A stretch of DNA of 64,000 nucleotides, from NCBI GenBank assembly GCA_050012075.1, contig JBEKHW010000003.1:14690-78689 (forward strand), written 5' to 3'. This document shows, piece by piece, positions 4,969 to 51,769 of this stretch. The notes beneath the pieces were generated by a model. That model saw only the letters and a program-made list of their open reading frames with translations, was not told where the DNA came from and made no database searches. The DNA is from Candidatus Omnitrophota bacterium. Its GTDB lineage: Bacteria > Omnitrophota > Gorgyraeia > Gygaellales > Profunditerraquicolaceae. The translations under genes were made by a program, and so were the position numbers. The first letter of the stretch is position 1; each line of letters begins with the position of its first letter.

Positions 4969-4974
4969 TACAGT

Positions 4975-10555: not shown

Positions 10556-11432
10556 TTTTAGGGTACAGCCTTTTGTAAATTTCTCGTAAGCCCTCGGTTA
10601 TCCTTGGCCCGGGCCTTAGCAAAATATCGGGGTTTATATCATTAAACACCCGTTTGTTCCTTACGGCATTGATATCCGACCAGCCGAAACGGCCGGCAAC
10701 CAGTTTCAACGGCATTTCTCTATCCATGTAAGCCAGTATGATGCAGTCCGGGTTAGCATTAACCACTTTTTCAGCGCTATAGTTACTGTATGGCCTAGTG
10801 AGGTCATACGCGATGTTTATGCCGCCTGCCAGGGTAATTAACTCGTCGATAAACGAACCTCTGCCTGCAGTCATCAGGGGGTCACGCCAGATTTCAACAA
10901 AAACTTTTGCTTTCTTGCCCTGCTGGATAGCACTTACCTTAGAAGTTACTGCTTTAATATCCCTTCTCATATTATCTATTAATACTGCGGCTTCCCTGGA
11001 TTTGCCGGTGATTCTTGCTATCTCGCTGATAGAATTAAGTAATTCCTCGATATTTGAAGGGTCAGAAACAAATACCTTTAATTTAAGCCGCCTTAATTCT
11101 CTTATAACCGGAGCCTGCTCCAGGCCGGTACAGAAGATGTAATCGGCCTTAAGGGATAGTATCTTTTCTATACTGGGATGGCTGAAATCCCCAACCCTTG
11201 GTTTATTTTTTACAGCCGGAGGGTAATTGCAATAGGAGCTTATTCCCACAATTTCTTCGTTTAGGCCTAATGCAAAAAGTATCTCTGTTGTTGAAGGCGC
11301 CAGGGAAATATATCTTGCTGCTGCCTGCGCCTTGCTTAAAAATAAAAGAATAAATACCGCGGTTAAGATTATTTTTTTCACAGGATAGCGCAAATAAAAA
11401 ACCCGCCACTTTTTCTGGCGGGTCGCACCCAA
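10548..11432 (-). CDS. btuF: Periplasmic cobalamin/siderophore-binding protein (BtuF-like)
   Basis: Class III substrate-binding protein with a signal peptide KKIILTAVFILLFLSKAQA. The true start may be the GTG at 11381. Confidence 0.75.
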   Translation of the reverse strand: MGATRQKKWRVFYLRYPVKKIILTAVFILLFLSKAQAAARYISLAPSTTEILFALGLNEEIVGISSYCNYPPAVKNKPRVGDFSHPSIEKILSLKADYIFCTGLEQAPVIRELRRLKLKVFVSDPSNIEELLNSISEIARITGKSREAAVLIDNMRRDIKAVTSKVSAIQQGKKAKVFVEIWRDPLMTAGRGSFIDELITLAGGINIAYDLTRPYSNYSAEKVVNANPDCIILAYMDREMPLKLVAGRFGWSDINAVRNKRVFNDINPDILLRPGPRITEGLREIYKRLYPKND

Positions 11433-11477
11433 ATATTTGCTTGGCCCTTTCCACGAGGCTTTTCATATAGGTAGGTC

Positions 11478-11660
11478 TTCTGGCTCAGGCTTTAACCTAC
11501 TTACTGCGTCTTCCCATCCCAAATTACCGGGACAGTGACTCTTGCAGCTTTCGTCTGCCTCTACAGCGGCGGGACCGCATCCGATTAACGGCTTTGGCTT
11601 ATCGGAAGCCAAACCATGGCCTACTGGCCAACGGATTTCCCTTAACCTATAATCCAAAAT
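11478..11660 (-). promoter_or_regulatory. Second cobalamin riboswitch, in the leader of the btuFCD-cob operon
   Basis: The minus-strand RNA reads GGUUAAGGGAAAUCCGUUGGCC...GCGGUCCCGCCGCUGUAGAGG...AGUCACUGUCCCGG. This gives the cobalamin core (GC.G.CCCGC..CUGUnA) and a B12-box-like GUCACUG. Confidence 0.55.
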
Positions 11661-11668
11661 GTCTTTTT

Positions 11669-11696
11669 ACTTTAACACTTTAAAAGGATTTGTCAA
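11669..11696 (-). promoter_or_regulatory. Putative sigma70 promoter upstream of riboswitch 2
   Basis: On the minus strand: TTGACA, a 16 nt spacer, then TAAAGT. Confidence 0.3.
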
Positions 11697-11799
11697 ATAT
11701 TTTTTGCCCACGGGGGCAATACTGGCGCAATACCGATTAGCGCCAGGTATATAACCTCTCGTGGTGTTGCCGCGTCACCCCTCGGATAAGCGCGTTGAT

Positions 11800-12300
11800 T
11801 CAGAATTCAATTCCCCTTCTTGCCTTTACGCCTTTCCTATAGTAATGTTTCCTTTCTTTTATTTCGCTTACGAGGTCTGCCATTTTTATGATCTGCGGAT
11901 GGGCATAGCGGCCGGTAAGAATAAGTTCCGCTCCCCGGTTTTCTTTGATGATACCCAGCAGTTCTCCTAAACTAAGGAGGTTAAGTTTGAGGGCGATATT
12001 GATTTCATCCAGGATAACCATGGCATATGTATTCTTTCGCAGGACTTGCCCTACTTTCTTTAAACCTTTTTTGGCGAGCATTATATCTTTAGGCGCAGGA
12101 GATTTCTTTATAAAACATCCTCTTCCAAACTGCTCGATTTTTATATTTTTTATTTTTCTTAACGCTTTTATCTCTCCGTAATCCCTACCTTTGGCAAACT
12201 GGGCAATGTAAACCTTAAGGCCGTTTCCTGCCGCCCTTAATGCAAGGCCGAATGCCGCCGTACTCTTTCCCTTGCCGTTACCGGTATATACCTGGATCAT
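11800..12300 (-). CDS. cobO: Cob(I)yrinic acid a,c-diamide adenosyltransferase
   Basis: P-loop YTGNGKGKSTAAFG and CobA/CobO/BtuR family organisation. The likely start is the internal Met MIQVYTG. Confidence 0.8.
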   Translation of the reverse strand: MIQVYTGNGKGKSTAAFGLALRAAGNGLKVYIAQFAKGRDYGEIKALRKIKNIKIEQFGRGCFIKKSPAPKDIMLAKKGLKKVGQVLRKNTYAMVILDEINIALKLNLLSLGELLGIIKENRGAELILTGRYAHPQIIKMADLVSEIKERKHYYRKGVKARRGIEF

Positions 12301-12944
12301 TTTTTCTCCTCCCACCCGAATTTACCTACGAGCGGAACGAATACGCAGCCGCAAATGCGGCGTGTTTGCAATTTACCTTCTTTTTTATCTATCACGGTAA
12401 GCACCTGGCTTAAGGTTTCGCCCAGGGGCACGACCATTTTTCCCATATCTTGAAGCTGTTCGGCAAGCGGCAAAGGGATGCGAGGGCTGGCAGCGGTGAT
12501 GATAATGCGGTCAAATGGCGCTTCTTCCGTCCAGCCGAGGGTGCCGTCTCCGACTTTTATTTTTACATCGTGATAACCGGCCGCATCCAACGCTATTTGC
12601 GCTTTTTTTGCGAGGGCCTCAAACCTCTCAATAGTATAAACTTTTCTCGCTAATTCTCGCAGGATCGCTGCCTGGTAACCAGAGCCGGTTCCGATTTCGA
12701 GCACCTTTTCTTTTCCGGTTAAGCCAAGGGACTCCGTCATAAGCGCGACCATATAGGGCTGAGAAATAGTTTGGCCTTCTCCGATAGGAATAGGATAATC
12801 GGCGTAGCTACTTTCCCGCCATTCTTGAGGGACAAACTTATGCCGCTCTACCTTGGAAAAAGCATCTATAACGCGCTTATCCTTTATACCCCTCAGGATA
12901 AGCTGCTCTTTTACCATCCGTTTTCTTAAGGTTTCGTAGTCCAT
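12297..12944 (-). CDS. pcm: Protein-L-isoaspartate O-methyltransferase
   Basis: 215 aa with a SAM-binding VLEIGTGSGYQAA motif and the TISQPYMVA motif. Confidence 0.85.
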   Translation of the reverse strand: MDYETLRKRMVKEQLILRGIKDKRVIDAFSKVERHKFVPQEWRESSYADYPIPIGEGQTISQPYMVALMTESLGLTGKEKVLEIGTGSGYQAAILRELARKVYTIERFEALAKKAQIALDAAGYHDVKIKVGDGTLGWTEEAPFDRIIITAASPRIPLPLAEQLQDMGKMVVPLGETLSQVLTVIDKKEGKLQTRRICGCVFVPLVGKFGWEEKK

Positions 12945-38139: not shown

Positions 38140-39600
38140 TTATTTAAGAATAATCATTTGCCAGGGCCAATCTTTCTTGAGATACCCTGAAGCTATCCTT
38201 GCCGCATTTCTACCTAAAGTAGCCACGCCGGAAATACCGCCCTCTCCCCCTATACCCGAAGTGCACCAATGCCCGGCTAAAATGAGGCCCTCTAAAGATG
38301 AAAGTTGCGGCACCAGTTTAGAGCTGATTTGTTCCAGGGTTGACTCCCATCCGTAAATCGCGCCATTATGATTAAGGGTATACCTATAAAAGGTATAGGG
38401 GCTCGCCCCTTCCATTACATCAACATGTTCATCTTTTAATCCGGGAATTATCTTCTTTACCTTTTGGAACATTTTGGCGATCAATTCGGTTTTTTGCTGT
38501 TTCCAGAAATCTTTTGACTCAAAAGGGGCATTTATTAGCGCCTGTATGGTATTAGAACCAAGTTTAACCGATTCATCATGCAAAGATGGGAAATATACTA
38601 AAATATACGGGAGCTCTTTTTCAAGCAGGTTTTTATTTAATGAGGAAAGCAATCCTATTATGTCGTAAGAGCCGATATGCCATATATTACACTCTTCTTT
38701 TATTAAGCTACTTAAATCAACGTTTATTCCTATATATAATGCCGCGGCAGAAGAAGAAGCTTTTAAGGATTCAACTACTGAAGATTCTTTTGTATCCTCG
38801 TCGGATAGCAGGTTTTTATAGGTTAAGGTAGCATCGGCACCTGAAACAACAATCCGGGAATTCAGGGTTCTTCCATCTTCTAATAGAACGCCGGTGACTT
38901 TTTTCTCCTTAGTGACAATTTTTGTGACTTTGGCGGATAAAATAAGCTCTCCTTTGTTTTTTTTAAGTTTATTGACAAGGGTATCAGTAAATGCCTGGAT
39001 TCCTCCAGCCGGGTAATATCCGGGGTCAAGTATAAATTCTTTAAGGAATATAACGCCGGCTAGAGCTGAAGTTTTGTCAGGCGAGGTCCCCATATTCGCT
39101 AAAAGAGCGCTTAAGGTTGCCTTGATTCTATCATCATTAAAATAGCTATTTAAGAGGCTACTAAAGGTCAGATTGGCTATTTCCGTGCGGATAGCCAGGA
39201 TATTTTCCTTCAGGATTTTTGTAAAGAATTTCTCAATATTCAGTTTTTCTTCAGGAAAGCTTTTCTTGAATTCTTCGATAGTGTCAAAAGGGGATGCCCT
39301 TACGTAGGTTACGTTATCAGGCATTATAATTTTGTCGGTAGGGTCGAATTGCTTAAATTTGAGTTGCTTTTTTAGGTCGAGCTCATCCAGGATTACGCTT
39401 AATGTCCCTCGCTTAACCGAACCAAGATAATGGACGCTGGTATCAAACCTGTATTTTCCTCTGGAAAAAGAGGTGCAATAACCTCCGGGGGTATGATGTT
39501 GCTCTATAATTAAAACATTAAATCCTAATTCAGACAGGTAACAACCGCAGGTTAACCCCCCTATCCCCGCCCCGATTATAATTACGTCGTATTTATCCAT
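38140..39600 (-). CDS. CrtI-family FAD-dependent oxidoreductase (paralog)
   Basis: YDVIIIGAGIGGLTCG motif, 486 aa. Confidence 0.75.
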   Translation of the reverse strand: MDKYDVIIIGAGIGGLTCGCYLSELGFNVLIIEQHHTPGGYCTSFSRGKYRFDTSVHYLGSVKRGTLSVILDELDLKKQLKFKQFDPTDKIIMPDNVTYVRASPFDTIEEFKKSFPEEKLNIEKFFTKILKENILAIRTEIANLTFSSLLNSYFNDDRIKATLSALLANMGTSPDKTSALAGVIFLKEFILDPGYYPAGGIQAFTDTLVNKLKKNKGELILSAKVTKIVTKEKKVTGVLLEDGRTLNSRIVVSGADATLTYKNLLSDEDTKESSVVESLKASSSAAALYIGINVDLSSLIKEECNIWHIGSYDIIGLLSSLNKNLLEKELPYILVYFPSLHDESVKLGSNTIQALINAPFESKDFWKQQKTELIAKMFQKVKKIIPGLKDEHVDVMEGASPYTFYRYTLNHNGAIYGWESTLEQISSKLVPQLSSLEGLILAGHWCTSGIGGEGGISGVATLGRNAARIASGYLKKDWPWQMIILK

Positions 39601-39648: not shown

Positions 39649-40209
39649 TTAATAAATTTCAAAGCTTAATTTAGCGTCCAGGCTATCCGTAATTTTCTTC
39701 AATGTCAGTAAAGAAATATTCTCTCTTCCTGATTCAATACGCGATATTACCTGTTGGGAAATTTTTAACCTTTTTGCCAGCTTGTTTTGGGTTAAGCCAT
39801 TTTGCACGCGCACAGCTTTAATCTTGTCCGCCACTAATTTGCAGAATTCGTTCTCCGGTCTTAACGCAAAATTATTTTTGGGGATAAGCAGGCCTTTAGC
39901 CTTGTGTTTTTCCCGCAATTTCTCGTATATGGCCTGCCAGAATTCAATTCTCGGGTCATTCCATGCATTTTTGCGCATTTGCCTCTTTATCGCATTCCAA
40001 TTATTCACAAAAATAGCGGGTTTTAGATAAACGTTAAAAACCTCTTTCGGGGAATTTTTCCTGGATAACAACAGGGATGCCAAAGATAAAAAATGGGCGT
40101 GTTTTGCGTCCTTTAATATTGCCTTGCTCATACGCAAGGAAATATTCCTGTCCCAAAGCCAATCGTTTTTAATATTAGCTTTCTGTAATCTTTTCGACAA
40201 TTTTATCAA
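39649..40209 (-). CDS. XRE-family HTH protein (candidate antitoxin/regulator partner of the upstream nucleotidyltransferase)
   Basis: C-terminal HTH NGLTQNKLAKRLKISQQVISRIESGR. The start overlaps the upstream gene by 35 nt, and an internal Met is possible. Confidence 0.55.
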   Translation of the reverse strand: MIKLSKRLQKANIKNDWLWDRNISLRMSKAILKDAKHAHFLSLASLLLSRKNSPKEVFNVYLKPAIFVNNWNAIKRQMRKNAWNDPRIEFWQAIYEKLREKHKAKGLLIPKNNFALRPENEFCKLVADKIKAVRVQNGLTQNKLAKRLKISQQVISRIESGRENISLLTLKKITDSLDAKLSFEIY

Positions 40210-40906
40210 CCTCTTTCTTAAAATGACGTTCTATTTCAGGGTAATTTATATCTTTTTTTATTTTTAGTTCCAGCAGGCCTGTTTTTACCTCGAAACGGCT
40301 ATATGTCCTGAACCACCTGATAATGGATTCGCGTATTAACTGATTGCCGTATCGAAAGGAAAAATCAGACAAGCGCATAAAAATCTGCGACAGGCAGTAT
40401 AAGTCATAAAAATCCTTTGCTTCCTGCCTGCCGCCTTCTGAAATCTTCCTGCCTATATAGTCAGTCGTTTGATGGGTGCCGGTAGCAGCATAAATTTTCC
40501 TCAGATAAATATCCTCTAAAGATAGAATATTAATCCCGTTAACCGATTTAAACGGTTTTATGCAATCCAGGTAGTCCTCAATAAAATCTATCTTTAAGGT
40601 ATCCTTTCTATCTATAACAAGGGAATAAACCAATATTTTTATCTTTCCTTTACGCGATTCCTCAGATATTAATTTAATTTTTCTATTTAAAGAAGCCGAA
40701 AGCGCCGTGATTATCTCTACTATCCTTTTTTTGCTGAAATCCTTTGTAAAGAAATCCAGGTCGAGCGATTCCCTGTGGTTAAAATAAAACAGAGAAAGCG
40801 CTGTTCCCCCGCCCAAATAGAAATCGTCAATTCTTCCAGTAAGGGCTTTTAATACCTTATTTTGCGCCTCTATAATTTTAGGTAGCATACCCAATATATA
40901 CAGCAT
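40175..40906 (-). CDS. Nucleotidyltransferase, AbiEii/AbiGii toxin family (DUF1814-like)
   Basis: LGGGTALSLFY...SLDLDFF minimal nucleotidyltransferase motif, 243 aa. Confidence 0.65.
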   Translation of the reverse strand: MLYILGMLPKIIEAQNKVLKALTGRIDDFYLGGGTALSLFYFNHRESLDLDFFTKDFSKKRIVEIITALSASLNRKIKLISEESRKGKIKILVYSLVIDRKDTLKIDFIEDYLDCIKPFKSVNGINILSLEDIYLRKIYAATGTHQTTDYIGRKISEGGRQEAKDFYDLYCLSQIFMRLSDFSFRYGNQLIRESIIRWFRTYSRFEVKTGLLELKIKKDINYPEIERHFKKEVDKIVEKITES

Positions 40907-40969: not shown

Positions 40970-42268
40970 TTAAACCTTACGGAATACCGCGGCGGCGTTG
41001 TAGCCGGCAAAGCCGCAGGAGAGTTTCATTACGGTGGTAAGCTTTTTATTTTGTTGTTTACGGATAAGGTTTATGTTGTAGCGGCTGTCAAAATCATCGC
41101 AGTTTAAAGAAGCGGGGATTATCCCGTTTTGTAGCGCAAGGATCAGGATTATTGACTCAAGGATTGCGCTACCACCCAGGTTATGGCCCACATAGGGTTT
41201 AAACGCGGAAACAGGGGTTTTATTGCCGAACATATTCGTAATTGCCTTTGCTTCGTATTGGTCGGTTATTTTGATACCTACACCGTGGGGGTTGATTAAA
41301 TCTATATCTTGCGCTTTAATTTCACTATTTTTAAGAGCTCCCTCTATTGCTTTCCCGTAAGAATTACTTATCGGGTTAGGTAATATCAGCTTCCAGCCCT
41401 CAAGAGAGAATCCACCTCCCGTATATTCAGCATAAATATTGGCTCCTCTTTTTTTGGCATGATTCAACTCTTCAAGAAGAATGGCAGAGTATCCTTCGCC
41501 GAAAACTATCCCGTCTGCATTCTTGGAGAAGGGCTTAATCTTTCCGTCTTCAGCGTAAAGATTGCGTTCTTTAAACCATAGGTGTTTAAGCATGCCGGCA
41601 GGGTTATCCCCCCCTGCGATAATCGCTACGTCGGTATCTTTAAATTTGATTTGCGTGTAAGCGGCATCCAGGGCAAAAAGCCCGGAGGCACAGGCATTAT
41701 TGGTAAACAGGGAGTATCCGCGAAAGCCCATTGCCTTTGCTACCAGATATAGGTACATAAAGCTTTGCAGCTCCTGGCCGTAATCGGAAAACTTGCTGAA
41801 AAGGTGCTGATAGAAACCAAACTCCGACGGATTTTCCTTAAGCCGGGATTTTTCCTTAAAATAGTTTAATCCTTCTTTGGTGAGAGATTCGCAGAATGGC
41901 TCAAAGCCCGGGTGCTCTATTGTCAGGAAAAAGCCTATATTGTTATCATCACGGTTATAATCCAATCCGCTGTCTTTTAACGCTAGTTGAGTAGCGGCTA
42001 AAGGGTAAAGAAAATCATTATCTTCTCTTCCCTGCCTGAAGCCGGAGATTTCTTTGAGCACCTCTTTATCTATGCCGAAATTATTTATGTTAAAATCCTT
42101 AATCTTATGCATCCAGAAGCTGTCCCACAATTGCTTATCCAGGAAAATCTCTTCTTTATGAAGCCCGGATTTTTCCCCAAGGATAGATTTCCACAAAGCT
42201 TCTTTACCAAAACCAATGGCGCATAGCGGCCCCAATCCTGTTATTACAACTCTTCTTTCTTTAGGCAT
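40970..42268 (-). CDS. Beta-ketoacyl-[ACP] synthase family protein (active-site Cys present, atypical N-terminal insert)
   Basis: NNACASG (Cys), HGVG and VGHNLG (His) motifs. Confidence 0.75.
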   Translation of the reverse strand: MPKERRVVITGLGPLCAIGFGKEALWKSILGEKSGLHKEEIFLDKQLWDSFWMHKIKDFNINNFGIDKEVLKEISGFRQGREDNDFLYPLAATQLALKDSGLDYNRDDNNIGFFLTIEHPGFEPFCESLTKEGLNYFKEKSRLKENPSEFGFYQHLFSKFSDYGQELQSFMYLYLVAKAMGFRGYSLFTNNACASGLFALDAAYTQIKFKDTDVAIIAGGDNPAGMLKHLWFKERNLYAEDGKIKPFSKNADGIVFGEGYSAILLEELNHAKKRGANIYAEYTGGGFSLEGWKLILPNPISNSYGKAIEGALKNSEIKAQDIDLINPHGVGIKITDQYEAKAITNMFGNKTPVSAFKPYVGHNLGGSAILESIILILALQNGIIPASLNCDDFDSRYNINLIRKQQNKKLTTVMKLSCGFAGYNAAAVFRKV

Positions 42269-43472
42269 ATTTTTTAATCACAAGGGTAGCATTGTTTCCG
42301 CCGAATGCAAAGCCATTTTTTAAGGCGATGTTTACCTTTTTCTTTCTGGCAACGTTGGGGACGCAGTCAATATCGCATTCAGGGTCTGCTTCCTCAAAAT
42401 TTATAGTCGGCGGGATAATATCTTCTTTTACCGACAGGCAGCAGGCAGCCGCTTCGATTACAGAAGCAGCTCCCATCGCATGGCCAAGCGCTGATTTTAA
42501 GGCGGTCACCGGGATATCTCTATAGCGCTCCTTAAACACATTTTTTATGGCAAGGCACTCTGTTTTATCGTTAAGAGTGGTCCCTGTGCCGTGGGTGCTG
42601 ATATAATCCACGTCTTTATAACTTATATTACTTTCCCGCATCCCCTTCTCTATTGCTTTTGCTATACCTTCGGCGCTTGGGGCGGTAGGATGAAAGGCAT
42701 CGCAGGAGAGACCGTAACCTAATATTTCCGCGTAAATTGGCGCGTTTCTTTTTAAAGCCGAATCCAGGTCTTCAAGTAGCAGGGCTCCTGCCCCTTCACT
42801 TAACATCATACCTTTCCTGTTTTTATCAAAGGGCTGGCATTTTTCAGGCGCCATGGCATAAATACGCTGAAACCCCGCAAAGGCAAAATAAGAAAAAGAA
42901 TCACTGCCCCCGCAGAGAGCAAAATCAAGCTCTCCGTTTTTTATAAGATCGAAGCCATAACCGATAGCATAATTTCCCGCGGCGCAGGCAGTAGGAAAAA
43001 GGTAATTCGGTCCCTTAATCTTAAAATGCAGGCCTACGTTGGCGGAGATATTGTTGACCCCGGACTGCATTATTCTTTGCCTGTCCACATCCTTAAGCCC
43101 TCCCTTTGCCCAAACCTGCATCAGCTCTTCAAGCGGCTTTTCTCCGTTTGTAGTCCCCATAAAAACTCCGGTTTTTGATTTCGGCAGATTTTTCAGGGGA
43201 AGCATCGCGTCAGTTATGGCTAAAGAGGAAGCGGCAATGGCAAATTGCGAAGCCTTGCCCAGGAATTTTATTCTCCTTTTCGGGATAAATTCTTCCGGCT
43301 TGAAATTTCTTACCTCTCCTCCCCTATGGCACCTGAAGGCGCTGGTATCAAAACTGGTTACTTCGCTTATCCCGGATTTACCGGAAATGACAGAACGCCA
43401 GAATTGCTCCTTGCCGATTCCTACGGACGAAACAACTCCTATACCAGTAACTACTACTCTCCTTTTATCCAT
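42261..43472 (-). CDS. Beta-ketoacyl-[ACP] synthase II-like (FabF-like)
   Basis: TACAAG Cys, STHGTGT and LGHAMGAA His motifs. It overlaps both neighbours. Confidence 0.8.
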   Translation of the reverse strand: MDKRRVVVTGIGVVSSVGIGKEQFWRSVISGKSGISEVTSFDTSAFRCHRGGEVRNFKPEEFIPKRRIKFLGKASQFAIAASSLAITDAMLPLKNLPKSKTGVFMGTTNGEKPLEELMQVWAKGGLKDVDRQRIMQSGVNNISANVGLHFKIKGPNYLFPTACAAGNYAIGYGFDLIKNGELDFALCGGSDSFSYFAFAGFQRIYAMAPEKCQPFDKNRKGMMLSEGAGALLLEDLDSALKRNAPIYAEILGYGLSCDAFHPTAPSAEGIAKAIEKGMRESNISYKDVDYISTHGTGTTLNDKTECLAIKNVFKERYRDIPVTALKSALGHAMGAASVIEAAACCLSVKEDIIPPTINFEEADPECDIDCVPNVARKKKVNIALKNGFAFGGNNATLVIKKYA

Positions 43473-43908
43473 TTTTTGGTTTAACCCCGAAAGTTAAACT
43501 TGCCTTTGCCACTAGTTTATCCCCGACACGCGCGACGGCGTCAACCACTCCTGCGGTATCCATAACTTTCACGCAAGATACTTCCAGAATAAGTTTATCT
43601 CCCGGAAACACTGGCGCCCTGAATTCAGCTTTTACCCTGCCCAGGTAATAAATGGGATGCGCCTCGGCGATTTTGGGCTTACGCACATAATAAAGGATTA
43701 TTGCAGTTTGGGCCATTGCTTCTACGATAAGCACCCCAGGCATAACGGGATTGCCTGGAAAATGGCCGCGGAAAAAATCTTCATTATGCCTAACATACTT
43801 TGCCGCTGTTACTTTATCCTGGTTCTCGACCGCTATTACTTCGTCTATAAGCAGGAATGGGTCGCGGTGCGGAAGGATTGTTTTTATTTTTTCTTTATCC
43901 CAGAGCAT
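43465..43908 (-). CDS. 3-hydroxyacyl-[ACP] dehydratase FabZ-like
   Basis: [11 protein letters not shown]...[20 protein letters not shown]. Confidence 0.8.
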
Positions 43909-43913: not shown

Positions 43914-44159
43914 TTACTCCTTTTTGGCGTTTTTAAAATAATCAATTATTTGTTTCAAATTCCTGATTTTGGGGATATCTTTCTCCGGAACGATAATCTT
44001 ATACTTTTTTTCAAAAGCAGCCACAATCTCAATTGCCTTAAGTGAATCTACTCCAAGCTCTGTAAAGAAATCCGCCTCGGGAGTAAGCTTTTCAACCGGC
44101 ACCTCGGTAATCTCTGAAACCATCTGCGTTAGTTCTAAATCAATATTCTCGTTCGCCAT
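43914..44159 (-). CDS. Acyl carrier protein
   Basis: 81 aa with the LGVDSL phosphopantetheine attachment motif. Confidence 0.8.
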
Positions 44160-44170: not shown

Positions 44171-45418
44171 TTAGCTGTGGGTATGCCGGGATATGACGGC
44201 AGAGGCGTTATTGCCTCCCGGCCCAAAATTATTGATTAAAATATTATCGACTTTACACTTGCGCGCGCCTGTAGTGACATAATCAAGGTCGCAGTCATCA
44301 TCTTTTTCTTTGTAATTTATGGTCGGAGGTATAAAACCCTGCTCAATGCTCCCTAACGAAGAGATAATCTGGAATATCCCGGAGGCGCTAAAACTTTCTC
44401 CGATCATGGACTTGATGGCGCTGACCGGTATTTTTAAGGCAGCGCTGTTAAACACTTCTTTTATTGCCATAGTCTCCAGTTTATCCTGTATGACTACGGA
44501 ATTAGCCGCCGCGTTTATATAACTTATTTTTTCTTTATCTATACCGGAGTTATTTAAGACGGAAGAAATGCAATTTTTCAGGCCCTCTGCTTCAGGAGAA
44601 TATTTTCCGCTACGGTAAGCGTCAAAGCAGCTTTTTGTGCTTTTTATGCTCGCGTAAATCTTTGCCCCTCTTTTTAAGGCGTCGTCTTCGTTTTCAATCA
44701 GGATAACGCCGGCGCCTTCTCCTAAAATAATCCCGTTCCTGCGCTTGTCAAACGGGCAGCATATTTCTTCTCCTTTTATTCCGGCAAGGAATTCAATTTT
44801 ATGGAATCCGGCAAAACTCTGAAAAGACAATCCCTCAAGCCCGGCGAGCAGTATCGCCTTTGCCTTACCCCACTTTATAAAGTCAACGGCGTATTTTAAG
44901 GCATCTAAGCTTGCGGTAAATCCGGTAGATATAGTGGTGTTAAAACCTTTAATCTTAAACCAGATGGAGACCTGGCTTGAAGGCGCGTTCATTGTGGTGG
45001 CGGGAAATATAGCCGGGTTTACGAATTGAGGGCCGTCCTGTTCCGCCTCTTTACTGAATTCCGCTATATTCCACATTGCCGATAAAGTCGTTGCCGTAAC
45101 TACACCTATATCATCAGTATTACCTTCATTAATGTTGAGATTTGCGTCATCAAGGCAGAGTTTTACCGCGGAGCATAGGAACCTGGTGCTGCGGTCAAGG
45201 TTACGTAGCCCCTTGGGCCCCAGAAATTTTTCCGCTTCAAAATCAGGCACTTCCCCGGCAAGGTGCGCTTTAAAAAGCACCGGGTCAAATACGGTAATCG
45301 GCCTTATTCCTGAGCGGCCTTCTTTTAAGGCCTGCCAGAACTCTTCTTTGCCTATCCCGATAGGCGATACTACCCCTATGCCGGTTATAACCGCTTTATT
45401 ACTAGCAGAATTATCCAC
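44171..45418 (-). CDS. Ketosynthase-like protein lacking the catalytic Cys and both His residues (chain-length-factor-like)
   Basis: It aligns to the KS fold, but the active-site positions read STGFTAS (Cys to Phe), INAAANS (His to Ala) and IGESFS (His to Glu). Confidence 0.75.
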   Translation of the reverse strand: MDNSASNKAVITGIGVVSPIGIGKEEFWQALKEGRSGIRPITVFDPVLFKAHLAGEVPDFEAEKFLGPKGLRNLDRSTRFLCSAVKLCLDDANLNINEGNTDDIGVVTATTLSAMWNIAEFSKEAEQDGPQFVNPAIFPATTMNAPSSQVSIWFKIKGFNTTISTGFTASLDALKYAVDFIKWGKAKAILLAGLEGLSFQSFAGFHKIEFLAGIKGEEICCPFDKRRNGIILGEGAGVILIENEDDALKRGAKIYASIKSTKSCFDAYRSGKYSPEAEGLKNCISSVLNNSGIDKEKISYINAAANSVVIQDKLETMAIKEVFNSAALKIPVSAIKSMIGESFSASGIFQIISSLGSIEQGFIPPTINYKEKDDDCDLDYVTTGARKCKVDNILINNFGPGGNNASAVISRHTHS

Positions 45419-46163
45419 TTTGTATTGATAACCCTCCGTCGATAACTAATGTTTGTCCTGTGATATAATTTGCCGCGTCACTTATCAGGAATTTTACTGC
45501 TTTCGCCACTTCTTCAGGCCTGCCGAATCTTCTTAAGGGTATATGTTTCATCAGCCCATCTTTCAGTGGTTCTTTGAGTCCGCTTACCATATCGGTTTCA
45601 ATGAAACCAGGGGCAACAGCATTTACCCTTATCCCGTATTTAGCTACTTCCCTTGCCAGGGATCTGGTAAAGCCGATTATCCCTGCTTTTGACGCGGCAT
45701 AATTGGTTTGCCTGGCAACCCCTGTTATCCCGCTTATCGAAGATATATTCACGATTATGCCGCTGTTTTGTTTTATCATGCCGGTTATTACCGCGCGGGT
45801 AAGGTTAAAAACACCTCCGAGGTTAGTGTCTATCACTTTCTGCCAGTCATTTTTTTCCATAAATGCCAGCGCCTTATCGTTGATTATCCCGGCATTATTT
45901 ATTACGATATCAAGCCCGCCGAAAGTTTTCTTTGTTTCTTCAACCCAGGCCGTAACGGCGTCAAAATCGCTGATATCTACGCGTGATGCCTTGGTTTTTA
46001 TTCCTAACCGCGTAATCTCGGCTAAAAGTTTATCCGCCTCTTCTTTATTATTCAGGTAGCTAAAGGCAATATTCAGGCCTTGGCGGGCTAACTCCAATGC
46101 AATCTGCCTGCCTATGCCCCTGCTTGCCCCGCTTACAATCGCTATTTTATTTTTTAAGTCCAT
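45411..46163 (-). CDS. fabG: 3-oxoacyl-[ACP] reductase (SDR)
   Basis: IAIVSGASRGIGRQIA, NNAG, and a YAASKAG catalytic triad. Confidence 0.85.
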   Translation of the reverse strand: MDLKNKIAIVSGASRGIGRQIALELARQGLNIAFSYLNNKEEADKLLAEITRLGIKTKASRVDISDFDAVTAWVEETKKTFGGLDIVINNAGIINDKALAFMEKNDWQKVIDTNLGGVFNLTRAVITGMIKQNSGIIVNISSISGITGVARQTNYAASKAGIIGFTRSLAREVAKYGIRVNAVAPGFIETDMVSGLKEPLKDGLMKHIPLRRFGRPEEVAKAVKFLISDAANYITGQTLVIDGGLSIQSG

Positions 46164-46539
46164 CGGTATCTATATTCCTCCTGACTGCTTCCAGAAAATC
46201 ATGGGTATCAAAGGGTTTTAATATGTATTCGGCGACTTTAAGGTCAAGCGCGTTTTTATAACTTTGCTCGTCGGCGTAGCCGGTAATCAGTATTTCTTTT
46301 ACCGGCGGCTTACCGGAGTCTTTGAGCGCCTGGCGTATCTTTTTAATCGTCTCTATGCCGTCTAAATGTGGCATCCTGATATCGCATACTATCAAATCCA
46401 GCTCTGTGGTTCTTGATTTTTCCGCCGCGTCCTCCCCATCGGCGGCAACCATGGCATTGTAGCCCTCTTTTTGCAAAAGCTTATGCAGCGTCTTGGTTAT
46501 CAGTCCCTCATCGTCGATTATTAAAATATTCTTTCCCAT
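46147..46539 (-). CDS. Single-domain response regulator receiver
   Basis: ILIIDDEG and LIVCDIRMPHLDG motifs, no output domain. Confidence 0.8.
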   Translation of the reverse strand: MGKNILIIDDEGLITKTLHKLLQKEGYNAMVAADGEDAAEKSRTTELDLIVCDIRMPHLDGIETIKKIRQALKDSGKPPVKEILITGYADEQSYKNALDLKVAEYILKPFDTHDFLEAVRRNIDTDGLKK

Positions 46540-46540
46540 T

Positions 46541-48709
46541 CTAACTCTCCTTCTTCGGCAGGGATACCGTAAAGACCGAGCCCCTTCCTTCTTCTGAATG
46601 AACGGTAATCGTCCCTTTATGCTTATTTATTATTGTTTGACAAATAGACAGCCCTAACCCGGTTCCTTTTCCCACTTCTTTTGTGGTAAAGAAAGGGTCG
46701 AATATTTTCGGCATTGTCGCTTTCGGTATGCCCATTCCTTCATCTTTAACCGACATATGGATCCACTTGCCGTTTTTTGAAAGCGATATGCAGACCTCTC
46801 CGGTTTTTTTAACTGCCCTGATCGCGTCGCGGGCGTTTAAAACCATATTTGTAAGCACCTGTTCCAGTTCATGTTGATTGCCGTTGACCAGATAATCGTC
46901 TTTTTTGGCGTCGATAATTATGCCGACGTTTTCCTGGTGGAGTTGATAGCCCAGGAACGCTTCCGCATCCTTGATTACATCCAGCAGGTTTACTTCTGAA
47001 AAAGGAGTGTCTTCAAGGGGTTTCTTGGCATAAGCCATGAGTTTCTGGACGATGGTGCGGCAACGCTTGGTGGCTTCTTCGATAAGCCCCAGAGATTCTT
47101 TTGAATCCGCGTCCAGGTTAGTCCTTTCGTCGATAAGCATCTGGACGTTAGTGAGAATCGCAGTCAGAGGGTTATTGATTTCATGCGCGACTCCTCCTGC
47201 CAGGGTACCTACGGTAGCAAGTTTCTCCGCATGGGTGAGTTGTTTTTGCACGTCAACTAATTCTTTAGTACGTTGCCTTACCTGCTCTTCTATATTTTCA
47301 TAAAGAAGTGAATTTGAGATGGCAATCGTCGCCTGGTTTTTCAGTGTCCTTAAGAAATGCAGTTCTGCCGCGTCGTAACGTTTAAGGTTTGATTTCCTCG
47401 CCAGGTTTATTACGCCAAGAAGTTTCTCGTTAAGGATAACAGGTATGATTACGACAGCTCCTGTAAGGTTGAAATATTCTCTTGCCCTGTCTTTTATGGA
47501 TGAATAAATTGGGTCTATCTCGATAAAATCGCGATGTAGTATCTTATCTCTTTTTGCAAGCCATGACAGGAATTCACTTTCCGTGCTCATTCGCGTGATT
47601 TTACTTTGGTTTGTGCTGGCATTAGCCAATATGTACTCTTTCCTCTGTTCGTTATAAATCAGTATATCTATATGTTGAGGGTAAAGCGTATCGTAAATAG
47701 TAGATTCAATGCGTTGGATGAGCTGGTTTAGGCCTTTCAGGTGCACGAGGTCTTCGGTAAACTTACGCGCGATTTCATCAAGGTCAGCCTGCCTCCTCTG
47801 GAAAAAATGGTCGATCTTTGGTTGTATTTCGCGTAAATACAGCGCCAATATCAGGAAGCCGGCAAGCCAGAATAACGTCTCAAGTAGAGACGAACCTTGT
47901 ATATACGGATAGGCCCATCGGTAGATAAGAAAAAGCGGTATTATTGCCAGGGAGAATGTAAGCAGCCACATCGTGGTTTTATGGATAACCGTCTCTATAT
48001 CAAAGGTCCGGTATTTGACGATGGAATAGGCAACTATCAGGATATAAATAAGCATCGAGATATATCCGAATGGATATAAAGGGTAATGTAAGAATTTCGG
48101 TACGAAGTCAAGGGATGCGGTAAATGCGATGAGCGTGGCTATGGTTACCACCTGCATCTGCCTTTTTTTTGCCGGAAGAGTTTCTTTTCTGTAGGAAAGA
48201 TAGAGCTTCCCGAAGCCCGCAAAGAACTGGAAGGCGAAAAACCCCAGGAATAATATCGTCTCCGGACGGTAAACAGGGTAATATCCCCAGAAATATCTTG
48301 TCGCGGTATAGGGCAGAATGAATTTATCCGTGGTCACGGCCAGAAAATAAAACAGGAAAGATATGCCGTAATTTAAGAGGACTAGCGCCTTCTTCTCTTC
48401 AAATTCCTGCGACCAGGCAACCGCGAACAGGTAGACACTGGGCATTATATTCACTACACCGAAGAAGGTAAAATAACGGTACCAGAAAAGAGCGGTTTCC
48501 GGAGCACGGCTTGAATAGACCACGGAACTCATAAGAAGCCAGAAGGTGACGCTAAAACACTGCAGGAAGAAAGCTATGTTTATGATTGATTTTCTGTTTT
48601 GGGCCAGGACAAAAAGGCCGATAAAAATAATGACCGCGCTTACTGAAAATACCGCAAGCGCGTAAGGGTTGAAATAGTAGCTTGAGATCTGAAGAAGAGG
48701 GTTATGCAT
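46541..48709 (-). CDS. Sensor histidine kinase (multi-TM sensor, GAF, HisKA, HATPase_c), a paralog of the 34392-36575 kinase
   Basis: H-box HAEKLATVGTLAGGVAHEINNPL and G-box GTGLGLSI. Confidence 0.8.
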   Translation of the reverse strand: MHNPLLQISSYYFNPYALAVFSVSAVIIFIGLFVLAQNRKSIINIAFFLQCFSVTFWLLMSSVVYSSRAPETALFWYRYFTFFGVVNIMPSVYLFAVAWSQEFEEKKALVLLNYGISFLFYFLAVTTDKFILPYTATRYFWGYYPVYRPETILFLGFFAFQFFAGFGKLYLSYRKETLPAKKRQMQVVTIATLIAFTASLDFVPKFLHYPLYPFGYISMLIYILIVAYSIVKYRTFDIETVIHKTTMWLLTFSLAIIPLFLIYRWAYPYIQGSSLLETLFWLAGFLILALYLREIQPKIDHFFQRRQADLDEIARKFTEDLVHLKGLNQLIQRIESTIYDTLYPQHIDILIYNEQRKEYILANASTNQSKITRMSTESEFLSWLAKRDKILHRDFIEIDPIYSSIKDRAREYFNLTGAVVIIPVILNEKLLGVINLARKSNLKRYDAAELHFLRTLKNQATIAISNSLLYENIEEQVRQRTKELVDVQKQLTHAEKLATVGTLAGGVAHEINNPLTAILTNVQMLIDERTNLDADSKESLGLIEEATKRCRTIVQKLMAYAKKPLEDTPFSEVNLLDVIKDAEAFLGYQLHQENVGIIIDAKKDDYLVNGNQHELEQVLTNMVLNARDAIRAVKKTGEVCISLSKNGKWIHMSVKDEGMGIPKATMPKIFDPFFTTKEVGKGTGLGLSICQTIINKHKGTITVHSEEGRGSVFTVSLPKKES

Positions 48710-50273
48710 TAACGGCTTCCTTTATACTTTCTACCATCGCAGTATCTATCTGTTTATGCCCCCAGTAGAAATCCGCGAGGACAAAACCGTGTTTTTCTCC
48801 GAGCGACTTTATCTCCTGCATCTTTTCAGGGGTGATATTTCCCCTTCCGAAGCTGAAGTTTTCATAACGTTTTTCAAGGGCAAGTATTATTGATTCGGAA
48901 AAACATCCGTAAAGGGCGTTGGTAGCGGGAAGGCCCACGTCAATGGGAAAAAGAATCGACGTAGGAGGTTTGCTTAATCCTCCGGAAAAAATGAAAATAT
49001 CCTTTCTGTCCGTCGGGGTGTAAGAGATATTTTTCGGGTATCCTACGTCGCAGATTATTGAGCCGGACTTAAACCAATCAACTTTCAGTATTGAAGAAGT
49101 GGCGCTTGCCGCTGAAATCACAATATCCGCATCCCTTACAGCTGCTTGGTTGTCGGTAGTCGCCACAATTTTAGCTTTTCTATGGCGGGAAAGCTCTTTG
49201 TTCATACGTGTAAGGTTAATCTTGGTCCTGCCGGTTATGGTAAGCTGCCTTACTTTATCCGTAAGGACCCTGGCGCAGGCGCTTCCGATATCGCCGGTCC
49301 CGCCTACTACAGCTATTTTTAATCCGGAGATATCTTTCCCCATGAGTTTAGTTGCTTTTAGCACCCCTTCTACTGCCATGGCCGCGGTAAAACTATTTCC
49401 TGTCGTCACCGCGACATCCACCTGTTCAGCTATCTCCTGGCCCACTCTTTCTGCCACAATAGAAGTGAATCCACCAAGGGTAACTATCCCCACGCCTTTT
49501 TTCTCCGCGAGCTTACAGGCCTTGACTACTTTGGAGAATACGACCCAGATATCTTTTTCTATCATATCTGGGATGAAGGTAGCGATTATAAACGTCCCGT
49601 TAACAGAATCTCCGGTTTTAGATTTGAAATCCAGGATGTCGTAAAGTTTAAATGACGGCGTAAGGTGGAAAAGTTGCCCGAGGAATTCTCGGGAAGGAAG
49701 TTTTATCCCAGGATTCAACACATGGAAACAGCTTTCCAGGTGATGATAATTATAAAGATGGCCGATAATTCCGAAACCGGCGATTTTTTCCGTATTCCCT
49801 TTCCTGTAACTTATGTATTTCAGTGATATGAGTTTTCTTTCTATCGCCTCAAGGATCGCTTCAAAACTCAAAACGATAAGTTTCCTTATATAATTATCGG
49901 CGAAATCCTTTATCGCTGGCACCCCGACCCTAAGGTGCACTATCACCGATACTTCTGTGCCTTCCGGATGCGGGCTAAAGCGCCATTCCCCGCTAAATTC
50001 TTCCAGGTCACCTTCTTTTAAGCGGAAAGAAATCTTATTTTGATTCAATTCCAGAGTATCCTCTTCTACCCAACTTATCGGCACTTTGTCTACCTGGATG
50101 CGCCACTTAGTAACCATTTTATTCCCGCTCTTGTTAAGTACCGTTGCCTCTCTAACAGAGGGTATAAAGGAAGGAAATTCCCAGACCCGGGTTAAGATAC
50201 GTATTACGCGCCATTTCTCGGCGGGTATTACGCGCGAAACTCTTATCTCTAGTAATTCGTTATCCGGCATCAA
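48702..50273 (-). CDS. SRPBCC (START/Bet v1-like) domain fused to a long-chain acyl-[ACP] reductase (cyanobacterial AAR, COG5322) homolog
   Basis: The C-terminal roughly 370 aa match the AAR block pattern: FGIIGHLYNYHHLE, TLGGFTSIV, TTGNSFTAAMAV, a Rossmann motif IAVVGGTGDIGSA, GYPKN, and FSFGRGNITPEKMQEI...HGF. The N-terminal roughly 145 aa is SRPBCC-like. Confidence 0.7.
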   Translation of the reverse strand: MMPDNELLEIRVSRVIPAEKWRVIRILTRVWEFPSFIPSVREATVLNKSGNKMVTKWRIQVDKVPISWVEEDTLELNQNKISFRLKEGDLEEFSGEWRFSPHPEGTEVSVIVHLRVGVPAIKDFADNYIRKLIVLSFEAILEAIERKLISLKYISYRKGNTEKIAGFGIIGHLYNYHHLESCFHVLNPGIKLPSREFLGQLFHLTPSFKLYDILDFKSKTGDSVNGTFIIATFIPDMIEKDIWVVFSKVVKACKLAEKKGVGIVTLGGFTSIVAERVGQEIAEQVDVAVTTGNSFTAAMAVEGVLKATKLMGKDISGLKIAVVGGTGDIGSACARVLTDKVRQLTITGRTKINLTRMNKELSRHRKAKIVATTDNQAAVRDADIVISAASATSSILKVDWFKSGSIICDVGYPKNISYTPTDRKDIFIFSGGLSKPPTSILFPIDVGLPATNALYGCFSESIILALEKRYENFSFGRGNITPEKMQEIKSLGEKHGFVLADFYWGHKQIDTAMVESIKEAVNA

Positions 50274-50853
50274 GCATTCCTTTTATTGCGTTCCTGACTT
50301 TAAACATGCCTTCCTGCAAATATATATCTTCAATGATGTCTTCCATTTCTTTAAGCATGTATATAGGCCTACCTACCTTTACCTTCAAGGGGAAAAGTTT
50401 CGGTAATTTTGCCGTTATGGGATAAGCCTCGAAAGTCCCTAAGATTGCCGCGGGCACAATGGGCCTGCCTGTTTTTATGGCTAAAAGCGCTGCCCCCCTC
50501 CTGAATTCCAGAAGTTTTCCTTCGTGGCTTACTCCGCCTTCAGGAAAGATACCGACGTTGCGGTTTTTAAGCAGTAATTCCAGGGCTTTATTAGAAGCGC
50601 TCCCCCCGGGAAGAGCCTCGCTTACATGCAAAAACCATTTTAGCAAGGGTATCCCGTAAAGCATCCTCATGGCTATGCAATGCACTTTTACGGGAAGCGC
50701 CACCATCATTACTAAAGGGTCCAGATAACTATTGTGGTTTGCCACGATGATAAAGTTACTTTTCTTAGGTAAATTTTCCAGCCCTTCAACCTTTAGCCTG
50801 AAAAATAATTTGAAAATAGGGGTAAAAAATGTTTTAAATATCCAGTACCACAT
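50260..50853 (-). CDS. PlsC-family acyltransferase (1-acyl-sn-glycerol-3-phosphate acyltransferase-like)
   Basis: NHNSYLDP (HX4D variant) and FPEGG motifs. The start is taken at the internal Met MWYWIFK. Confidence 0.7.
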   Translation of the reverse strand: MWYWIFKTFFTPIFKLFFRLKVEGLENLPKKSNFIIVANHNSYLDPLVMMVALPVKVHCIAMRMLYGIPLLKWFLHVSEALPGGSASNKALELLLKNRNVGIFPEGGVSHEGKLLEFRRGAALLAIKTGRPIVPAAILGTFEAYPITAKLPKLFPLKVKVGRPIYMLKEMEDIIEDIYLQEGMFKVRNAIKGMLDAG

Positions 50854-50857
50854 GTTT

Positions 50858-51769
50858 TTATAACAACGGCGCCTCAGGCACCCAGATTTCAAAGCCATGC
50901 CGTGCCGCGATATCAGCTATCTCCTCAAGGTTGTCCGGGTTTATAGCGTTGCCTAAATAATTCAGGAAAAACTTTTTTGCCAGGGTTAAAAGTATTGTTT
51001 CTGCAAGCTGAGTCCGGATAACAGCCCGCGGAAGGCGAGTCCTTATTTTTGAATCTAACGGATAAGGCAATTTTACCAATCCGCTCCTGATGCGGGCTAT
51101 GTCGTTACGGATTCCTTCGCGGGGTATCCCGTTACCAGAAAATAGTTCACAAAGGATTGCCCCGGGTTTCATCTTATCTATAATGTCGGCTGTTTTATCA
51201 AGGCATGCCGCAAGGTTTACGGCAATGTCCGCTTCGTTAATCGATTCGGCGGGCCTACCCGCGTAATTTGATAATTTTTTTTCACAGAGTCTACCCAGGA
51301 CACTTTCCCTTCCATTGATATAAAAAGACAGGTTTTTAATCTCCTTATCTTTTATCCTGACATAGCGGTAAAGCGCCTCAAGGACCGACCAGGCAGTGAA
51401 TGCGTTTCCGTCGGTAACGGTTACTTTTATTTTTTTGCTTATTTTATCGTGTATTTTTTCGGCAACGCAAGAGAGATGCTCATCCAGGCCTATCACTGCC
51501 ACTCCCAGCTTTTCGCAAAAAATAAGCGTATCTATAAGCAGGTTTTGTGAGTCCGTATCTGTGGCGCAAAGTCGTGGGCATAATACAATGTAGCCGGTTA
51601 TTTCTTCTCCTTGAAGTGATTTTATACCTTTAATATACCCTACCTTTATGGGCTTGTTTCTCTTTAGTATTGTTTTTATGATAAAAGACGGCAATAACCG
51701 CACAGAAGGCCAGATATCCTTTATATTCTCTATAGTCCCAGGGCTAACTATATAGGCAAAAGTGTCCAT
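50858..51769 (-). CDS. AAR/COG5322-like paralog lacking the NAD(P)-binding glycine motif
   Basis: It shares blocks with the neighbouring AAR homolog (VTVTDGNAFTAWSVLEAL, and a C-terminal ...PDNLEEIADIAARHGF), but the GxGxxG position reads FYINGRESVLGRL. Confidence 0.5.
   Translation of the reverse strand: MDTFAYIVSPGTIENIKDIWPSVRLLPSFIIKTILKRNKPIKVGYIKGIKSLQGEEITGYIVLCPRLCATDTDSQNLLIDTLIFCEKLGVAVIGLDEHLSCVAEKIHDKISKKIKVTVTDGNAFTAWSVLEALYRYVRIKDKEIKNLSFYINGRESVLGRLCEKKLSNYAGRPAESINEADIAVNLAACLDKTADIIDKMKPGAILCELFSGNGIPREGIRNDIARIRSGLVKLPYPLDSKIRTRLPRAVIRTQLAETILLTLAKKFFLNYLGNAINPDNLEEIADIAARHGFEIWVPEAPLL

Follow-up and report, generated by a model that had tools for sequence, protein, structure and literature searches.

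The 64,000-nucleotide stretch of DNA analyzed here (the window) comes from a Candidatus Omnitrophota metagenome-assembled genome (MAG; contig JBEKHW010000003.1). At positions 44,171 to 45,418, it codes for a ketosynthase (KS) homolog which has lost all three catalytic residues and which we refer to as KSmut. We consider it likely (with a probability of roughly 0.78) that KSmut is the noncatalytic, chain-length factor (CLF)-like partner of KS2, an active ketosynthase from the same operon, that the two proteins form an obligate heterodimer, and that they function in a lipid pathway resembling that of the ladderane clusters of anammox bacteria. KSmut is the Omnitrophota member of an already known clade of catalytically dead FabF proteins, the type represented by amxFabFmut. 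An earlier sequence-only reading had proposed a CLF-like partner in a specialized lipid or polyketide-like operon. This proposal gains support from the best structural matches of KSmut and KS2, which are chains C and B of PDB entry 9s5h, and from gene synteny in 13 of 13 related loci with sufficient flanking sequence.

A full-length FabF homolog without catalytic residues

KSmut has 415 residues and is translated from a GTG start codon, which is overlapped by the stop codon of fabG (8 nt). The open reading frame (ORF) exists as first read, and its translation contains the three motifs quoted at that time (GFNTTISTGFTASLDAL, YINAAANS and IGESFSASG). The strand, however, has to be corrected, as the gene lies on the minus strand. 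The two neighboring ketosynthases, KS2 and KS3, were rightly described as having an intact C/H/H triad, but their genes had been placed upstream of KSmut and are both downstream in the direction of transcription. Pfam detects a full-length ketoacyl synthase, with an N-terminal domain (PF00109, residues 10-247, 123.5 bits) and a C-terminal domain (PF02801, residues 255-369, 90.9 bits). The top NCBIfam model is FabF (TIGR03150), with 345.3 bits, which is under its cut-off of 493.75.

Active-site positions were assigned with HMMER against the FabF from Listeria (3o04) and with a MAFFT alignment that included KS2 and KS3, and the two assignments agree. Phe167 occupies the column of the catalytic Cys, Ala304 that of the first catalytic His (His-1) and Glu341 that of the second (His-2), which bears out the replacements originally read from the letters. 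The structural Lys is kept (Lys336), and the gating Phe is replaced by Pro400. Both KS2 and KS3 read C/H/K/H/F at these columns. The sequence-only reading had named one outcome that would speak against it, namely that the catalytic residues are present but offset. KSmut has 4 His (residues 52, 206, 412 and 414) and 8 Cys (residues 82, 88, 220, 221, 264, 283, 376 and 388), and because none of these is close to residues 167, 304 or 341, an offset triad is ruled out.

The database holds a protein with 100% identity to KSmut, P0001, whose annotated source is a MAG of Candidatus Omnitrophota. The AlphaFold2 monomer model has a predicted TM-score of 0.86, and its low-confidence segments include residues 112-122, 133-143 and 203-229. 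A fold search with Foldseek (the "pdb" library up to 2026-04-08, which has no 9s5h) returned the FabF from Bacillus subtilis as the best match (4ls8/4ls5; TM-score 0.86, 35% identity). KSmut is a folded, strongly conserved and catalytically dead FabF paralog.

Conservation of the dead site

The 120 closest database sequences share 59-100% identity with KSmut, and their named sources include Omnitrophota and Nitrospirota. In this set, the Cys column is occupied by Tyr (90), Phe (29) or His (1), and the His-1 column by Ala (67), Ser (51), Thr (1) or Pro (1). The His-2 column is Glu in all 120 homologs. Lys336, Pro400, Asn306, Ser307 and Gln350 are invariant, as are Asp312 and Glu315. An alignment of 60 sequences from the family has 65 invariant columns.

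Compared to the closest ortholog (from locus L001), the ratio of nonsynonymous to synonymous substitution rates (dN/dS) of KSmut is 0.082. The ratios of its operon neighbors are 0.073 (FabG), 0.082 (acyl carrier protein, ACP) and 0.078 (KS2); all four ratios are rough because dS is saturated. Purifying selection on KSmut is as strong as on its active neighbors. Because the substitutions are conserved in the 120 homologs and dN/dS equals that of the active neighbors, the loss of the triad is old and maintained, and KSmut is a pseudo-enzyme rather than a decaying gene.

Conservation extends to a helix-loop-helix region. Phe138 is found in 120 of the 120 homologs and Thr141 in 116, while position 142 is either Thr (92) or Val (28). 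The same combination (Phe138, Thr141 and Thr or Val at 142) was seen in each of the 19 full-length dead-KS loci that were examined, and the canonical FabF proteins of the same scan differ from it (Val, Ile or other residues).

Relationship to the anammox pair amxFabF2/amxFabFmut

Among solved structures, the best match to KSmut is chain C of 9s5h and 9s5i (388 bits, about 50% identity), followed by FabF proteins with at most 257 bits. This chain is also devoid of the triad and reads V/N/K/E/R at the active-site columns. The best match to KS2 is chain B of 9s5h (477 bits), so that KSmut and KS2 each find their best PDB match in one and the same heterodimer. The second-best match to KS2 is Iga11, the ishigamide ketosynthase (6kxd_A, 351 bits), and the best FabF (1e5m) scores 312 bits.

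We infer that 9s5h and 9s5i represent amxFabFhet from Brocadia fulgida, the latter with amxACP. The entries hold two ketosynthase chains, and 9s5i has an additional ACP chain. The V/N/K/E/R signature of chain C is that of Kuste3606 in Table 2 of Rattray et al. 2009. Residue numbers correspond at a constant offset to those in a preprint from May 2026 (bioRxiv 10.64898/2026.05.19.726425): C170, H303, S301 and A302 of chain B to Cys165, His298, Ser296 and Ala297, and F134, T137 and V138 of chain C to Phe135, Thr138 and Val139. Charges counted by hand in the 9s5h sequences failed to reproduce the surface potentials that underlie the published asymmetry of the helix-loop-helix and the interacting helix.

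That preprint describes amxFabF2 and amxFabFmut from B. fulgida with and without amxACP. The two proteins co-purify, each is inactive alone, and they form an obligate heterodimer of the KS/CLF type, which decarboxylates malonyl-ACP and yields acetoacetyl-ACP. Phe135, Thr138 and Val139 of amxFabFmut line the acyl tunnel of the active subunit, and mutations of Phe135 and Val139 shift the chain-length preference in crosslinking assays. Interface motifs of amxFabFmut are ordered in the heterodimer and disordered in a homodimer crystal. The closest structural neighbor reported for amxFabFmut is B. subtilis FabF, as found here for KSmut. The pair is assigned there to a ladderane-specific cluster and is put forward as the first example of a CLF in fatty acid synthesis.

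The similarities between KSmut and amxFabFmut (KustE3606/Broful02170/Scabro02228) are extensive. Both have a full-length FabF fold, have lost the triad and keep the Lys. In both, His-2 is replaced by Glu, the Glu that tunes this His (Glu349) by Gln, and the gating Phe is lost. Lys336, Glu341 and Gln350 of KSmut correspond to the Lys328/Glu333/Gln342 signature of Kuste3606 and Kuste2805 (Rattray et al. 2009). The tunnel residues of the helix-loop-helix are Phe, Thr and Val or Thr in both proteins, and the three low-confidence segments of the KSmut model given above coincide with the interface elements (helix-loop-helix and interacting helix) that are ordered in the anammox heterodimer and disordered in the homodimer crystal. 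Both are encoded together with an amxFabF2-like ketosynthase, an amxFabZ-like dehydratase, a dedicated ACP and phytoene desaturase-like flavoenzymes. There are also differences. The residues at the dead site are Phe/Ala/Glu/Pro in KSmut but Val/Asn/Glu/Arg in amxFabFmut. The gene order is KSmut-ACP-FabZ-KS2, whereas the gene for amxFabFmut is directly upstream of that for amxFabF2. The hosts are an Omnitrophota bacterium and an anammox planctomycete. Unlike anammox Cluster I, the KSmut operon additionally codes for FabG, a third ketosynthase, proteins resembling acyl-ACP reductase (AAR), a PlsC-type acyltransferase and a two-component system.

The database proteins matching KSmut (50%-identity representatives) fall into three groups: stand-alone dead ketosynthases, active ketosynthases (CHKHF) and about 45 fused proteins. 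The stand-alone dead proteins share the signature x-x-K-E-x (e.g., FAKEP, FCKEP, YAKEP and MNKEN). In a neighbor-joining (NJ) tree that contained no CLFs of polyketide synthases (PKS), 38 of them, including KSmut and 9s5h_C, are separated from 52 active ketosynthase domains in 100 of 100 bootstraps. On this sequence evidence, KSmut is assigned to a FabF-derived clade of dead ketosynthases that includes amxFabFmut. In the fused proteins of about 800 residues (P0121, P0125, P0126, P0130 and about 40 others), an active N-terminal ketosynthase (CHKHF) is fused to a dead C-terminal one, and many of the dead domains retain the K-E signature. These fusions among distant relatives provide Rosetta-stone-like support for the pairing of an active with a dead ketosynthase. 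One member of the dead clade (P0140) has the signature C-S-K-E-C, having kept the Cys but neither His. This protein may represent an intermediate stage in evolution, or else a variant that can still bind acyl groups to some extent.

Predicted pairing with KS2 and predicted role

The gene order FabG-KSmut-(ACP-FabZ)-KS2 is found in each of the 13 related loci that have enough flanking sequence. In all 13, KS2 is encoded at most 3 kb downstream of KSmut, and in several loci the two genes are directly adjacent. In the window, the distance is about 0.7 kb, with the genes for ACP and FabZ in between.

Since KSmut and KS2 are homologous to the anammox proteins for which structures and assays are available, they are predicted to form an obligate heterodimer as well. 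The helix-loop-helix of KSmut (residues 112-143 approximately, with Phe138, Thr141 and Thr/Val142) would close the far end of the acyl tunnel of KS2 and would thereby set the chain lengths or shapes that KS2 accepts. Only the heterodimer would be active, decarboxylating malonyl-ACP and producing acetoacetyl-ACP, and because of this reaction the pair could be self-priming and independent of FabH. The pair would act on the ACP of the cluster, with FabG responsible for ketoreduction and the amxFabZ-like protein for dehydration. Annotation of the operon genes with Pfam and NCBIfam revealed no enoyl reductase, and because the cluster also codes for two CrtI-like flavoenzymes, we speculate that the acyl chain produced is probably unsaturated or modified in some other way. 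It is also possible, by analogy with ApeR of aryl-polyene clusters, that KS3 is a second, homodimeric ketosynthase for another chain-length range. The AAR-like proteins and the PlsC-type protein hint that the chain is either released (as an aldehyde or alcohol) or passed on to glycerolipids; either route is speculative.

Distinction from type II PKS, aryl-polyene and canonical FabF proteins

The sequence-only reading had associated KSmut with type II PKS and aryl-polyene systems. While the CLF-like role is upheld, this family attribution turned out to be imprecise. KSmut has 28% identity (147 bits) to the actinorhodin CLF but 35% (257 bits) to FabF; the actinorhodin query sequence was confirmed to be identical to 1tqy_B. 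Where KSmut reads F/A/K/E, the actinorhodin CLF reads Q/D/K/R, and Phe167 is aligned to Gln161. There is no CLF chain among the 60 best sequence matches or the 50 best fold matches to KSmut. The actinorhodin CLF itself has 132 bits to 9s5h_C but 200 bits to FabF. Because it is closer to FabF than to 9s5h_C, the two types of dead subunit may have arisen independently from FabF-like ancestors, as this comparison suggests.

The functional logic is nevertheless comparable. The KS-beta subunits of type II PKS (the actinorhodin CLF 1tqy_B and the ishigamide protein Iga12, 6kxd-f) are inactive ketosynthase paralogs as well, which form a heterodimer, shape the tunnel and retain the Lys. A likeness to the ishigamide system is also seen in KS2, given its match to Iga11. 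Gene arrangement, however, differs. KSmut precedes KS2, with ACP and FabZ between them, rather than being coupled downstream of the active subunit as is typical for KS-beta. Its neighbors are FabG and FabZ of the fatty acid synthesis type, in place of the cyclase/aromatase arrangement of a minimal PKS.

Aryl-polyene clusters combine the ApeO-ApeC heterodimer of the KS/CLF type with a stand-alone ketosynthase (ApeR), a ketoreductase and a dehydratase, and have no enoyl reductase, which is similar to the situation described here (PMC8358021). According to the same description, most of the second thiolase domain is missing from ApeC, and this sets ApeC apart from KSmut, a complete two-domain protein. 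No aryl-starter genes are present in the window, and a scan of operon genes identified none for aryl-polyene export and none of the glycosyltransferase/LolA type. Canonical FabF (KAS II, e.g., 4ls5 from B. subtilis) forms a homodimer in which both active sites are present. It provides the best fold for KSmut, which differs in being devoid of Cys, both His and the gating Phe. KSmut would work like a CLF and yet is outside of the CLF families of type II PKS and aryl-polyene systems.

Alternative explanations

Several points weigh against KSmut being the partner of KS2 as in the anammox pair. The identity of 9s5h as amxFabFhet is deduced from the correspondences given above; the main text of the preprint prints no PDB codes, and a full-text search for "9S5H" was fruitless. 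The anammox work is a preprint (bioRxiv 10.64898/2026.05.19.726425), in which only priming, and not elongation, was seen in vitro. Within the dead-KS clade, KSmut and amxFabFmut are not immediate sister lineages. The five-member group that unites KS2 and amxFabF2 is obtained in only 28 of 100 NJ bootstraps, so that one-to-one orthology is not established and, for this reason, only a best-hit relationship is claimed. Finally, a second active ketosynthase, KS3, is encoded next to KS2, and it could be the partner of KSmut instead. Its residues 107-175 approximately, which cover the helix-loop-helix region at the dimer interface, fail to align with known or solved ketosynthases even though C/H/K/H/F is kept, and its gene is translationally coupled to that of KS2 in the same operon. 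One could thus envisage that the KS3 interface was remodeled to fit KSmut and that KS2 is an ordinary homodimer. We regard this as quite unlikely. KS3 is missing from most loci which keep KSmut and KS2 (e.g., L002, L003, L006-L008 and L013-L015), the latter two being directly adjacent in several of them, and it is KS2 rather than KS3 that resembles the crystallized partner amxFabF2 (477 vs. 172 bits).

It is unlikely, too, that KSmut acts alone (as a monomer or homodimer) in a non-condensing function, for which it might bind an acyl chain or acyl-ACP in its retained second tunnel and serve as a carrier, a scaffold, a sensor or a decarboxylase relying on Lys336, Glu341, Asn306, Ser307 and Gln350. 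The dead pocket is certainly not degenerate, as these five residues and Asp312 and Glu315 are invariant. A different substrate and function have been proposed for such paralogs (Rattray et al. 2009), amxFabFmut from Scalindua crystallized as a homodimer, and a polyethylene glycol molecule occupies the tunnel on the mut side of the anammox heterodimer (bioRxiv 10.64898/2026.05.19.726425). However, the anammox subunits have no activity individually and the interface motif is disordered in that homodimer, KSmut strictly co-occurs with KS2, and no nucleophile or His is left in its pocket for decarboxylation. That KSmut is a genuine KS-beta of an aromatic or aryl-polyene synthase is very improbable. 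A dead next to an active ketosynthase is a hallmark of such systems, the operon codes for a Polyketide_cyc (SRPBCC) domain, and Iga11 is the runner-up among the PDB matches to KS2. Against this stand the bit scores of KSmut (147 to the actinorhodin CLF, 257 to FabF and 388 to amxFabFmut), the Phe in place of the Gln that is typical for CLFs, the lack of any CLF among the best sequence and fold matches, the truncation of ApeC (PMC8358021), and an operon with FabG and FabZ in which the SRPBCC domain forms a fusion with a reductase and is not a stand-alone aromatase/cyclase. As every catalytic residue is gone, KSmut might also be taken for a decaying fabF copy devoid of function. For practical purposes, this is refuted by the conservation data: the frame is intact and of full length, dN/dS (about 0.08) is that of the active neighbors, and the substitutions at the former active site are kept in 120 homologs from several phyla, with conserved synteny. 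All four alternatives are minor compared to an assignment of KSmut as the CLF-like partner of KS2.

The operon and its surroundings

The genes of the operon and of the adjacent region are listed in Table 1. In the direction of transcription, the order is AAR-like protein, PlsC, SRPBCC-AAR fusion, histidine kinase, receiver, FabG, KSmut, ACP, FabZ, KS2 and KS3. Beyond KS3, an AbiEii/XRE pair is followed by two CrtI-family flavoenzymes and a second histidine kinase. From position 51769 down to at least 40970, the genes overlap or almost touch, and the start/stop overlaps along the operon range from 8 to 41 nt. The overlapping run begins with the AAR-like gene, the product of which has no Pfam match.

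Table 1. Genes of the KSmut operon and adjacent region, in the direction of transcription (positions refer to the window).
Gene product	Position	Strand	Basis and remarks
AAR/PigE-N-terminal-like protein, divergent, 303 aa	50858..51769	minus	NCBIfam PigE, 40.9 bits (weak); homolog in L011
PlsC-type acyltransferase	50260..50898	minus	PF01553, 96 bits
SRPBCC (Polyketide_cyc) + acyl-ACP reductase-like fusion	48702..50273	minus	PF03364, 56 bits; TIGR04058, 173.8 bits (cut-off 449.7)
7TM-GAF histidine kinase and stand-alone receiver domain	46147..48709	minus	embedded in the operon
FabG, 3-oxoacyl-ACP reductase	45411..46163	minus	TIGR01830, 308.7 bits (above cut-off); syntenic in related loci
KSmut (CLF-like subunit)	44171..45418	minus	full-length FabF-like KS homolog; triad lost (F167/A304/E341)
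Dedicated ACP	43914..44159	minus	PP-binding domain
FabZ-type 3-hydroxyacyl-ACP dehydratase, amxFabZ-like	43465..43908	minus	PDB matches
KS2, active, FabF2-like; C/H/K/H/F intact	42261..43472	minus	best PDB match 9s5h_B
KS3, divergent, active-type KS; C/H/K/H/F intact	40970..42268	minus	alignment; present in a subset of loci
AbiEii toxin/XRE-HTH pair	39649-40906	minus	between KS3 and the CrtI-like genes
PDH-like A, CrtI/phytoene desaturase (PDH) flavoenzyme	38140..39600	minus	Amino_oxidase, NAD_binding_8; crtI_fam and carotenoid isomerase models below cut-offs
PDH-like B, second CrtI-family flavoenzyme	36588..38129	minus	
Second histidine kinase, similar to the first	34392-36575	minus	after the CrtI-like genes

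The kinship to the anammox system is not restricted to the ketosynthases. The five top PDB matches to FabZ are the amxFabZ entries 7qv0, 8ayb, 8ayi, 8ayc and 8ayd (112-127 bits), while ordinary FabZ proteins have at most 106.5 bits. For the ACP, the anammox protein amxACP (7qv0_D) is the second-best PDB match, and 7auf and 9s5i_E match as well. The kinase/receiver pair would regulate the lipid pathway specifically, as a sensor of the membrane.

Related loci and radical SAM genes

The core gene order, which may be written as [histidine kinase-receiver]-FabG-KSmut-(ACP-FabZ)-KS2-(KS3)-PDH, recurs in Omnitrophota, in Nitrospirota/Thermodesulfovibrionales and in MAGs labeled "Planctomycetia". The kinase and the receiver are encoded upstream of fabG in L001-L006 and L009, the SRPBCC-AAR fusion is syntenic in L002, L005 and L006, and PDH-like A in L002, L008, L009, L011 and L015. 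KS3 is present only in a subset (L001, L004, L009 and L011). With regard to the AAR-like and PlsC-type proteins at the start of the operon, some related loci (L002 and L008) instead code for a protein which, judged by eye from its sequence, resembles an NAD-dependent thioester reductase.

Anammox ladderane Cluster I codes for a cobalamin-dependent radical SAM enzyme, while the KSmut cluster and the window do not. The CxxxCxxC motif of radical SAM proteins is found in no ORF of at least 150 residues in the window, and Pfam, which was run on the cluster genes and not on every ORF of the window, gave no match to a radical SAM domain. Radical SAM genes are also absent from the loci of the Omnitrophota and Nitrospirota relatives. 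Genes of this type are adjacent to a dead ketosynthase only in more distantly related loci of the Deltaproteobacteria/Thermodesulfobacteriota type (L016, L017 and L020). There, 2-3 radical SAM-like genes coding for 450-500 residues are located a few kb from the dead ketosynthase (L016, 8173-11153; L017, 3950-8664; L020, 6583-7932), which has the signature E-[A/C]-K-E-N; the sources are annotated as Deltaproteobacteria, Thermodesulfobacteriota or unclassified. We suspect them to code for radical SAM proteins that bind B12, like those of the clusters from anammox bacteria and Desulfotalea. The arrangement echoes the synteny with Desulfotalea and Geobacter that was noted by Rattray et al. 2009.

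It is tempting to view the KSmut operon and its Omnitrophota and Nitrospirota counterparts as a radical SAM-free sister of anammox Cluster I, in which the shared module (active and dead ketosynthase, ACP, FabZ and CrtI-like enzymes) produces a non-ladderane chain of defined length and AAR-like enzymes set this chain free, in the form of an aldehyde or alcohol, for use in unusual membrane lipids. We propose this only tentatively. The chain would then probably be polyunsaturated or otherwise modified.

Implications

The pair of a dead and an active FabF from anammox bacteria belongs to a large conserved clade that is widespread outside of anammox. Dead ketosynthases of this clade also occur in uncultured Omnitrophota, in Nitrospirota/Thermodesulfovibrionales and in Thermodesulfobacteriota, and the loci from the first two groups are devoid of radical SAM genes. 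The clade offers a comparison set by which the generic parts of the anammox cluster (for a chain of defined length that is probably unsaturated) may be told apart from the ladderane-specific ones. If the operon is indeed a radical SAM-free sister, subtraction of the shared module from the anammox clusters could isolate the chemistry that is specific to ladderanes. In addition, the operon flags an uncharacterized lipid pathway in Omnitrophota that involves AAR-like reductases and an acyltransferase of the PlsC type; to our knowledge, there is hardly any lipid biochemistry for this phylum. Novelty is limited, since related clusters outside of anammox had already been seen by Rattray et al. 2009 and since "ladderane" clusters called by antiSMASH are on record for Omnitrophota MAGs (PMC9902471).

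Other features of the window and of related loci

A block for cobalamin salvage and uptake is located on the minus strand (3115-12315). It codes for a TonB-dependent receptor, CobS, CobT (DBI_PRT), CobU, a CobC-like phosphatase, a BtuD/BtuC/BtuF-like ABC transporter and a BtuR/CobO adenosyltransferase. The window showed no gene for a B12-dependent enzyme.

ORFs resembling toxin-antitoxin genes, as found between KS3 and the CrtI-like genes, occur elsewhere in related clusters (L002, 12592-14008; L004, 3266-4523; L005, 6420-7096; L007, 5150-5844; L009, 1705-2995; L011, 14571-16014). Their positions vary and, as judged by eye, they resemble pairs of the AbiEii/AbiEi type or of the nucleotidyltransferase/HEPN type.

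The window has a GC content of 42.7%, and every non-overlapping ORF of at least 150 residues in its 64 kb is on the minus strand.

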